Assembly: GCF_044647545.1 (NCBI RefSeq)
Contig: NZ_CP172818.1
Source: Escherichia coli
GTDB lineage: Bacteria; Pseudomonadota; Gammaproteobacteria; Enterobacterales; Enterobacteriaceae
Direction: 5' to 3' (one strand)
Length of the DNA stretch: 64,000 nucleotides
Shown: positions 30,255 through 31,707 of the stretch, piece after piece
Numbering within the stretch: the first letter of the stretch is position 1
How the letters are laid out: each line of letters begins with the position of its first letter
The notes under the pieces: model-generated
Seen by the model: the letters and a program-made list of their open reading frames with translations, nothing else
Databases searched by the model: none
Told to the model about the DNA's origin: nothing
Translations under genes and position numbers: made by a program

Positions 30255-31648
30255 GCGGTACCCTCACGACGCGGTGCGCGTTTGCGTGGACGACGAGTAC
30301 GACGACGCGGTGACGGTTCTTCATCCAGTTCGTTAAGCATCCCTTTTTGGTCTGGCGGCGCGGAAACCTGGAACTCACCCCACCATTTCACCAGACGTTG
30401 CAGTTCAGCGTTACGCTCAACTTCGGCTCGTAAGGCCAACAGGTCGTATGCCGCACGGAACTTAGGATGCTCCAGCAGTTTCCATGCGCGTTTTCCCTGA
30501 CGACGGGACATACGCAACTGCAACTGCCAGATATCGCGAGTTAGCGTAGTCAGACGTTTCGGGATCGCCAGTGAACGGCAGGCTTCGTCCAGCACGTCGT
30601 TCATCGCCAGTGCGAAAGCGTCGTGATAGGTCAGGCCGCTCTCCTGAGCAATTTTCTGTGCCGTCTCCAGCAGTGGATACCAGAACATGGCGGCAAACAG
30701 GAACGCCGGGTTCACGCGCATATCGTTATGGATACGCGTATCGGTATTCTTCAGCACCTGTTCAATGATCCGCTCCATCGGGCTGTCGCCATTTTCCGTG
30801 AAGTAGCGGGTAATGGTCGGGAACAGCGGCTGGAACAGATGATATTCACACAGCAGCTTATAAGTTTCGTAACCGTAGCCCGCTTGCAACAGTTTCAGCG
30901 ATTCTTCAAACAGACGTGCCGGTGGGATATCGTTCAGTAAGGTTGCCAGGCGTGGGATCGGCTCGGCGGTTTCCGGGCTGATGCGCATGCCCAATTTGGC
31001 GGCAAAACGAACCGCGCGAAGCATCCGTACCGGATCTTCACGGTAGCGCGTTTCCGGGTTACCAATCAGACGGATAACGCCGTCTTTCAGATCCTTCATG
31101 CCGCCAACGTAATCACGGACGGTAAAATCTGCCACGCTGTAATACAGGCTGTTGATAGTGAAATCGCGGCGCTGGGCGTCTTCTTCGATGGAGCCGAAAA
31201 TGTTGTCGCGCAGCAACATACCGTTTTGCCCGCGTTGGGAGGTCGTGCGGTCGCTGACGTTACCTTCGTGATGTCCACGGAAGGTCGCAACTTCGATAAT
31301 CTCCGGGCCAAACATCACATGAGCCAGACGGAAACGGCGACCCACCAGGCGGCAGTTACGGAACAGTTTGCGCACCTGCTCTGGCGTGGCGTTGGTGGTC
31401 ACGTCAAAATCTTTCGGCTTTTTGCCAAGTAACAGGTCGCGCACGCCGCCGCCAACCAGCCAGGCTTCGTATCCCGCTTTATTGAGCCTGTACATTACCT
31501 TCAGGGCATTTTCACTGATATCTTTGCGGGAAATAGCATGCTGCTCACGCGGGATCACCGTCACCTGTGGACGGGCGACTGCCTGTTCAGCCTCGCTTTC
31601 CTCGCGGCTTAGCACCTTGCGGCAAAAATTAGCGACTCGGGTAAAAAT
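30251..31648 (-). CDS. pcnB: Poly(A) polymerase I; start assigned to in-frame AUU (non-canonical) as established for pcnB
   Basis: ORF 30251..31669 (472 aa from upstream ATG); recognised PcnB N-terminus is (M)[21 protein letters not shown], corresponding to att at 31646..31648, giving 465 aa. Confidence 0.85.
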
Positions 31649-31707
31649 AGTACACCTCGGTAGTGTCAAACATCATTCAGGACAAAAAAATAGCGGCTAA
31701 TCATAGC

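Follow-up and report, generated by a model that had tools for sequence, protein, structure and literature searches.

The AUU start codon of pcnB in an Escherichia coli genome and its conservation across Enterobacteriaceae

Introduction

In Escherichia coli, pcnB and infC are the only genes with confirmed AUU start codons (bioRxiv 10.1101/063800, PMC5499595). In infC, the chromosomal gene for initiation factor IF3, the AUU codon restrains translation, and discrimination against AUU by IF3 is the accepted mechanism (PMC5499595, bioRxiv 10.1101/063800). For pcnB, which encodes poly(A) polymerase I (PAP I), passages in three papers (PMC2939334, PMC3561954, and PMC9764084) credit Binns & Masters (2002) with the finding that translation from AUU limits PAP I synthesis; these passages attribute to the same study, for strain K-12, both a protein N terminus that begins at the AUU and an increase in expression when AUU is changed to AUG. 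The study is also cited for the pcnB AUU in passages of PMC5499595 and bioRxiv 10.1101/063800. PAP I is present at about 30 to 50 molecules per cell and is toxic if overproduced (PMC3561954). In reporter assays, UUG reached 10 to 100% of the level obtained with AUG, whereas AUU reached 1 to 2% (bioRxiv 10.1101/063800). The introduction of PMC3561954 names UUG as the pcnB start codon, which we take to represent an older start model. A pcnB entry was not found in the supplements of PMC4909307 (TetRP) and PMC10710512 (Salmonella/Listeria), and the main text of the TetRP paper (PMC4909307) mentions neither pcnB nor AUU. The use of AUU at pcnB in vivo is supported here by secondary citations together with comparative evidence.

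The present analysis concerns the start of pcnB in a 64,000-nt stretch of E. coli DNA from RefSeq assembly GCF_044647545.1 (contig NZ_CP172818.1), referred to here as the window, in which the gene lies on the minus strand. K-12 MG1655 pcnB (b0143) has the same leader, ATT codon, Shine-Dalgarno (SD) sequence, upstream TTG, 465-amino-acid (aa) length, and gene order as the window, and there was no difference between the two in the start region. The sequence, the coordinates, the SD strength, the conservation, and the identity with K-12 were all computed here; the use of AUU and its limiting effect are taken from the literature.

Results

The pcnB coding sequence, encoding poly(A) polymerase I, was located at 30251..31648 on the minus strand and comprised 465 codons plus a stop codon, beginning with ATT, as read from the list of open reading frames (ORFs), the RefSeq annotation, and NCBIfam model NF008634. 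The product scored 997.1 bits against this PcnB equivalog model (cutoff, 702), with residues 1 to 464 aligned to profile positions 1 to 468 of 469, and 523 bits against TIGR01942 (cutoff, 305.65). The solved E. coli poly(A) polymerase structures in the PDB (3AQK to 3AQN) matched with an E value of about 1e-284, the chains of 3AQK, 3AQL, and 3AQM at residues 35 to 449 of the 472-aa frame; these constructs are N-terminally truncated and are therefore uninformative on the start codon. The gene order sfsA-dksA-gluQ-pcnB-folK was common to the window, K-12, and E. coli FDAARGOS_497, a strain identical to the window in this region, and the folK start codon and the pcnB stop codon overlapped within an ATGA. 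In the RefSeq annotation of both FDAARGOS_497 and K-12 MG1655 (b0143), pcnB is a 1,398-nt CDS encoding 465 aa, the first codon of which lies exactly on the ATT at 31648.

Public protein collections contained three start models for pcnB, namely, a 472-aa model starting at TTG, a 465-aa model starting at ATT, and a 454-aa model starting at GTG codon 12. The 472-aa and 465-aa models were each found on at least 1,000 contigs, and the 454-aa model, which begins MLSREE, carried the name "Poly(A) polymerase I precursor." The start of the neighboring gene gluQ (31708..32634, minus strand) also differed by record: the K-12 record has a 927-nt CDS of 308 codons, equal to the ATG-initiated ORF of the window, the FDAARGOS_497 record has an 897-nt CDS (PGAP), and gene calls in Salmonella give 298 or 313 aa.

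Read 5' to 3' on the minus strand from 31710, the start region consisted of TGA (the gluQ stop codon), GCTATGATTAGCCGCTATTTTTTTGTCCTGAATGATGTTTGACACTACCGAGGTGTACT, and then ATT TTT ACC CGA GTC GCT AAT TTT. The gluQ stop codon, at 31708..31710 by direct reading, by the ORF list, and by the annotation, was separated from the pcnB ATT by an intergenic leader of 59 nt. The ATT initiation codon (AUU in the mRNA) occupied 31646..31648, and the codons from ATT onward read (M/I)FTRVANF. The initial annotation had placed the PcnB N terminus, FTRVANF, at this same ATT, and its placement was borne out both by the sequence and by the RefSeq starts of the identical strain and of K-12. Upstream, the pcnB frame was closed by an in-frame TGA at 31673..31675 (minus strand), nine codons 5' of the ATT. 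Between these two codons lay an in-frame TTG at 31667..31669 (minus strand), which is codon -7 relative to ATT and the start of the 472-aa model, and which had no SD sequence. The initial annotation had reported an in-frame ATG at these positions; the bases on the plus strand are caa, so that the codon is TTG. The only nearby ATGs were at 31676..31674 and 31673..31671, which is 28 and 25 nt 5' of the ATT, and both were out of frame. These tandem ATGs opened a 15-codon ORF (ATG ATG TTT GAC ...) at 31629..31676 on the minus strand, out of frame with pcnB and overlapping both the SD sequence and the ATT. Downstream of the ATT, the first in-frame canonical start codon was the GTG at codon 12 (31613..31615, minus strand), with which the 454-aa model begins. 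Given the base composition, the chance of an in-frame ATG, GTG, or TTG among the eight sense codons between the TGA and the ATT was about 31%, so the presence of a TTG at codon -7 was not remarkable.

The start region was next to invariant within the species. A 601-nt segment (31400..32000) matched E. coli FDAARGOS_497 at 100% identity and was found at 95% identity or more in 5,424 of 5,426 complete E. coli genomes, and from the gluQ stop codon into the pcnB coding region the window and K-12 read the same. Since the K-12 leader is identical to that of the window, the published K-12 experiments apply to the window directly. A 91-nt leader query (31710..31620) matched with zero mismatches in 5,397 of 5,424 complete E. 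coli genomes. Neither of two edited versions of this query, one with codon -7 changed to ATG and one with the ATT itself changed to ATG, the rest of the 91 nt being kept, had a perfect match in about 5,420 complete E. coli genomes, a result that leaves at most the 27 genomes with a nonidentical leader in which such a variant could be hidden. Three of the 5,424 E. coli leader matches were on records labeled as plasmid rather than chromosome. Over the 601-nt segment, identity of at least 99% was found in only 110 of the 5,424 genomes, most of which differed by 1 to 5%; because the leader was invariant in 5,397, the divergence must lie in the flanks, including the 3' part of gluQ. In the flanks of 31400..32000, the window thus belongs to a minority E. 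coli lineage.

The SD sequence GAGGTG was found at 31653..31658 on the minus strand, 4 nt 5' of the ATT, from its pairing with 16S rRNA and its invariance across species. When the 20 nt upstream of each candidate start were paired with the 3' end of 16S rRNA, the ATT at 31648 gave -9.7 kcal/mol (GAGGUG), in contrast to +0.1 kcal/mol for the TTG at codon -7 (31669), a value weaker than that of 91% of the long-ORF starts in the window. The out-of-frame ATGs at 31676 and 31673 gave +0.7 and +0.4 kcal/mol, respectively, and the GTG at codon 12 (31615) gave +0.5 kcal/mol. Pairing as good as or better than that at the ATT site occurred at only 0.3% of random window positions and at about 4% of long-ORF starts. 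The 6 nt between the GAGG core and the ATT are close to the spacing generally regarded as optimal, and the AUU thus had an SD sequence at functional spacing. Furthermore, the leader RNA (31695..31600) folded less stably than 199 of 200 shuffled sequences (z = +2.0), and among these foldings there was no mRNA structure that would hide the UUG or the SD sequence. This low level of structure looks like that expected of an open initiation region. The strong SD sequence directs the ribosome to the AUU, and the weakness of this start lies in its codon and not in its SD sequence. The strength computed here conflicts with the secondary literature, in which the pcnB ribosome-binding site is called "poor" (PMC3561954, PMC9764084); the word "poor" may date from the earlier model with a UUG start.

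The start region was compared among the closest 80 Enterobacteriaceae species, each represented by one genome, in genera that included Escherichia, Citrobacter, Salmonella, Enterobacter, Kluyvera, Kosakonia, Klebsiella/Raoultella, and Leclercia. The ATT codon for residue 1, the GAGGTG located 4 nt 5' of it, and the first 12 residues of PcnB were invariant in all 80 species. Codons 1 to 12 contained five variable sites, all of them at third positions and none at first or second positions; if codon position were random, the probability of finding five of five at third positions would be (1/3)^5, or about 0.004. That these codons varied at third positions only indicates that codons 1 to 12 are translated. 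In the 21 nt 5' of the ATT, the invariant SD sequence aside, variability was equal by codon position (0.23, 0.25, and 0.25), and the peptide that these 21 nt would encode had 27 different forms among the 80 species. In five species, an in-frame stop codon was present within codons -7 to -1. Alignment gaps were needed 5' of the SD sequence and nowhere from the SD sequence onward; in Kosakonia oryzendophytica (L059), for example, a single inserted nucleotide makes codon -7 a TGA.

The initial annotation had raised the question of whether the upstream codon is conserved. At codon -7, 26 species had TTG, 2 had ATG, and 52 had a nonstart codon, so that only 28 of the 80 species had a start codon there, and in 43 of the 80 there was no in-frame ATG, GTG, or TTG from the first in-frame stop codon 5' of the ATT down to the ATT itself. 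Conservation of the coding type therefore began at the ATT, with no conserved in-frame canonical start codon upstream. The combination of third-position-only variation from the ATT onward with aperiodic, gapped sequence upstream argues that the pcnB coding region begins at the ATT and that the upstream TTG, judged by its distribution, is not a conserved start.

A promoter scan of 31550..32050 identified one sigma-70-like site, TTCTCA-17 nt-TATGAT, at 31700..31728 on the minus strand, and no other promoter-like site in that interval. The spacer of this predicted promoter (31728..31700) spans the gluQ stop codon, and the -10 hexamer starts 2 nt 3' of that codon; the block containing the hexamer, GCTGAGCTATGATTAGCCGC, recurred in most of the 80 species. 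The published pcnB promoters are pB, the major sigma-70 promoter, and the minor promoters p1, p2, pS1, and pS2 (PMC2939334), and the predicted site is a candidate for pB. If this promoter is used, we infer that the transcript would start near 31693 and would include the UUG; transcript structure by itself is thus no argument against the UUG.

Discussion

The region described here is very probably where translation of E. coli pcnB normally initiates. Its transcript would most likely arise at the sigma-70 promoter overlapping the 3' end of gluQ and would have a short, unstructured, A/U-rich leader, on which the strong and well-spaced SD sequence (GAGGUG followed by 4 nt) would position the 30S subunit over the AUU at 31648..31646. 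Discrimination against AUU, for which IF3 is the putative factor at pcnB by analogy with infC, would then make initiation inefficient, with the majority of attempts rejected, and inefficient initiation would keep the number of PAP I molecules low. The two AUU-initiated genes differ in that the product of infC regulates its own gene and pcnB encodes an unrelated enzyme, so that any dependence of pcnB on IF3 would be one-way and not a feedback. The UUG at 31669..31667 would be carried on the leader, but it has no SD sequence and is not conserved; the most fitting reading is that of an old, misannotated start rather than a functional alternative, one that may support at most a trace of SD-independent initiation. 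The proposal in the initial annotation that an inefficient AUU keeps PAP I levels low agrees with the published mechanism, and the ATT is backed in addition by the 80-species comparison. The accompanying suggestion, that an unusual upstream ATG in this sequence could alter that control, does not hold, as the codon is a TTG that lacks an SD sequence and lies in a leader that is standard for the species, K-12 included.

A start at the UUG at 31669..31667, which would make a 472-aa PAP I the main product or else a significant second isoform, has several points in its favor: the UUG is the first canonical start codon after the in-frame stop, the leader around it is unstructured, many database records carry the 472-aa model, UUG is named as the start in the introduction of PMC3561954, and UUG is in itself the more efficient of the two codons (bioRxiv 10.1101/063800). 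These points are outweighed by the very poor SD pairing of this codon relative to other long-ORF starts in the window, by its replacement with nonstart codons in the majority of the species, and by the in-frame stops and lack of codon periodicity 5' of the ATT, and both the post-2002 literature and RefSeq use AUU and not UUG. This reading is therefore very unlikely. The conservation that begins at the ATT also bears on the converse reading, which is extremely unlikely, that the ATT is a mere conserved leader triplet and that translation starts downstream, either at GTG codon 12 to yield 454 aa or at an internal AUG. The internal AUG, served by the sigma-S promoter pS1, is credited to an original proposal by Liu & Parkinson; pS1 is situated 3' of the AUU and is reported to function in special conditions, and a shorter PAP I has been speculated to account for a second band on Western blots (PMC2939334). 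In addition, 454-aa models with the GTG start are present in databases. The GTG, however, is without an SD sequence, the NF008634 profile aligns from residue 1, and codons 1 to 12, with a protein sequence identical in every species and substitutions that are all of the third-position type, are evidently translated.

The tandem ATGs raise another reading, in which the out-of-frame 15-codon ORF (31676..31629) is translated and ribosomes crossing the SD sequence and the AUU modulate initiation at pcnB. The ORF does span both elements and ends 17 nt 3' of the ATT, and the unstructured leader would favor its translation as well, but its ATGs have no SD sequence, and its stop codon is conserved only as part of the conserved pcnB codons GCT AAT. 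As a conserved ORF it was rejected, the ATG at -25 being kept in only 9 of the 80 species; the ATG at -28 was present in only 6. The ORF is probably fortuitous, and the chance that it modulates pcnB is next to negligible.

Among the species compared, Salmonella enterica resembles the window in having a stop at codon -9, the GAGGTG SD sequence, the 4-nt spacer, the ATT, and identical PcnB residues 1 to 12, but it differs in that codon -7 is a true ATG (tATGacactaccGAGGTGcgctATT) where the window has TTG. This ATG was found at positions 401-403 of both L083 and L085 (subsp. enterica) and at positions 2480-2482 of L022 (diarizonae) and L023 (arizonae). It is not preceded by an SD sequence, the pairing energies being -0.9 kcal/mol in L022 and -3.1 kcal/mol in L023, compared with -9.5 kcal/mol for the ATT. 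The arrangement proposed in the initial annotation, an in-frame ATG at codon -7, thus exists in Salmonella enterica and not in the window. It is unlikely, though conceivable, that ribosomes initiate at a low level, without an SD sequence, at the UUG of codon -7 (in Salmonella, the AUG) on the open, A/U-rich leader, so that Escherichia, Citrobacter, and Salmonella make a minor 472-aa isoform extended by MTLPRC(T/A)I.

The ATT start of pcnB is real and already known, and there is nothing new about it in the window. The AUU start of this gene is a textbook exception, of which the window carries the standard allele, and its relevance here is mainly one of annotation hygiene. The Salmonella AUG situated seven codons 5' of a conserved AUU is a mildly interesting lead, which lies outside the window. 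If the 472-aa isoform does exist, it would mean that particular lineages partly bypass the AUU throttle, Salmonella most of all, given its AUG at codon -7.
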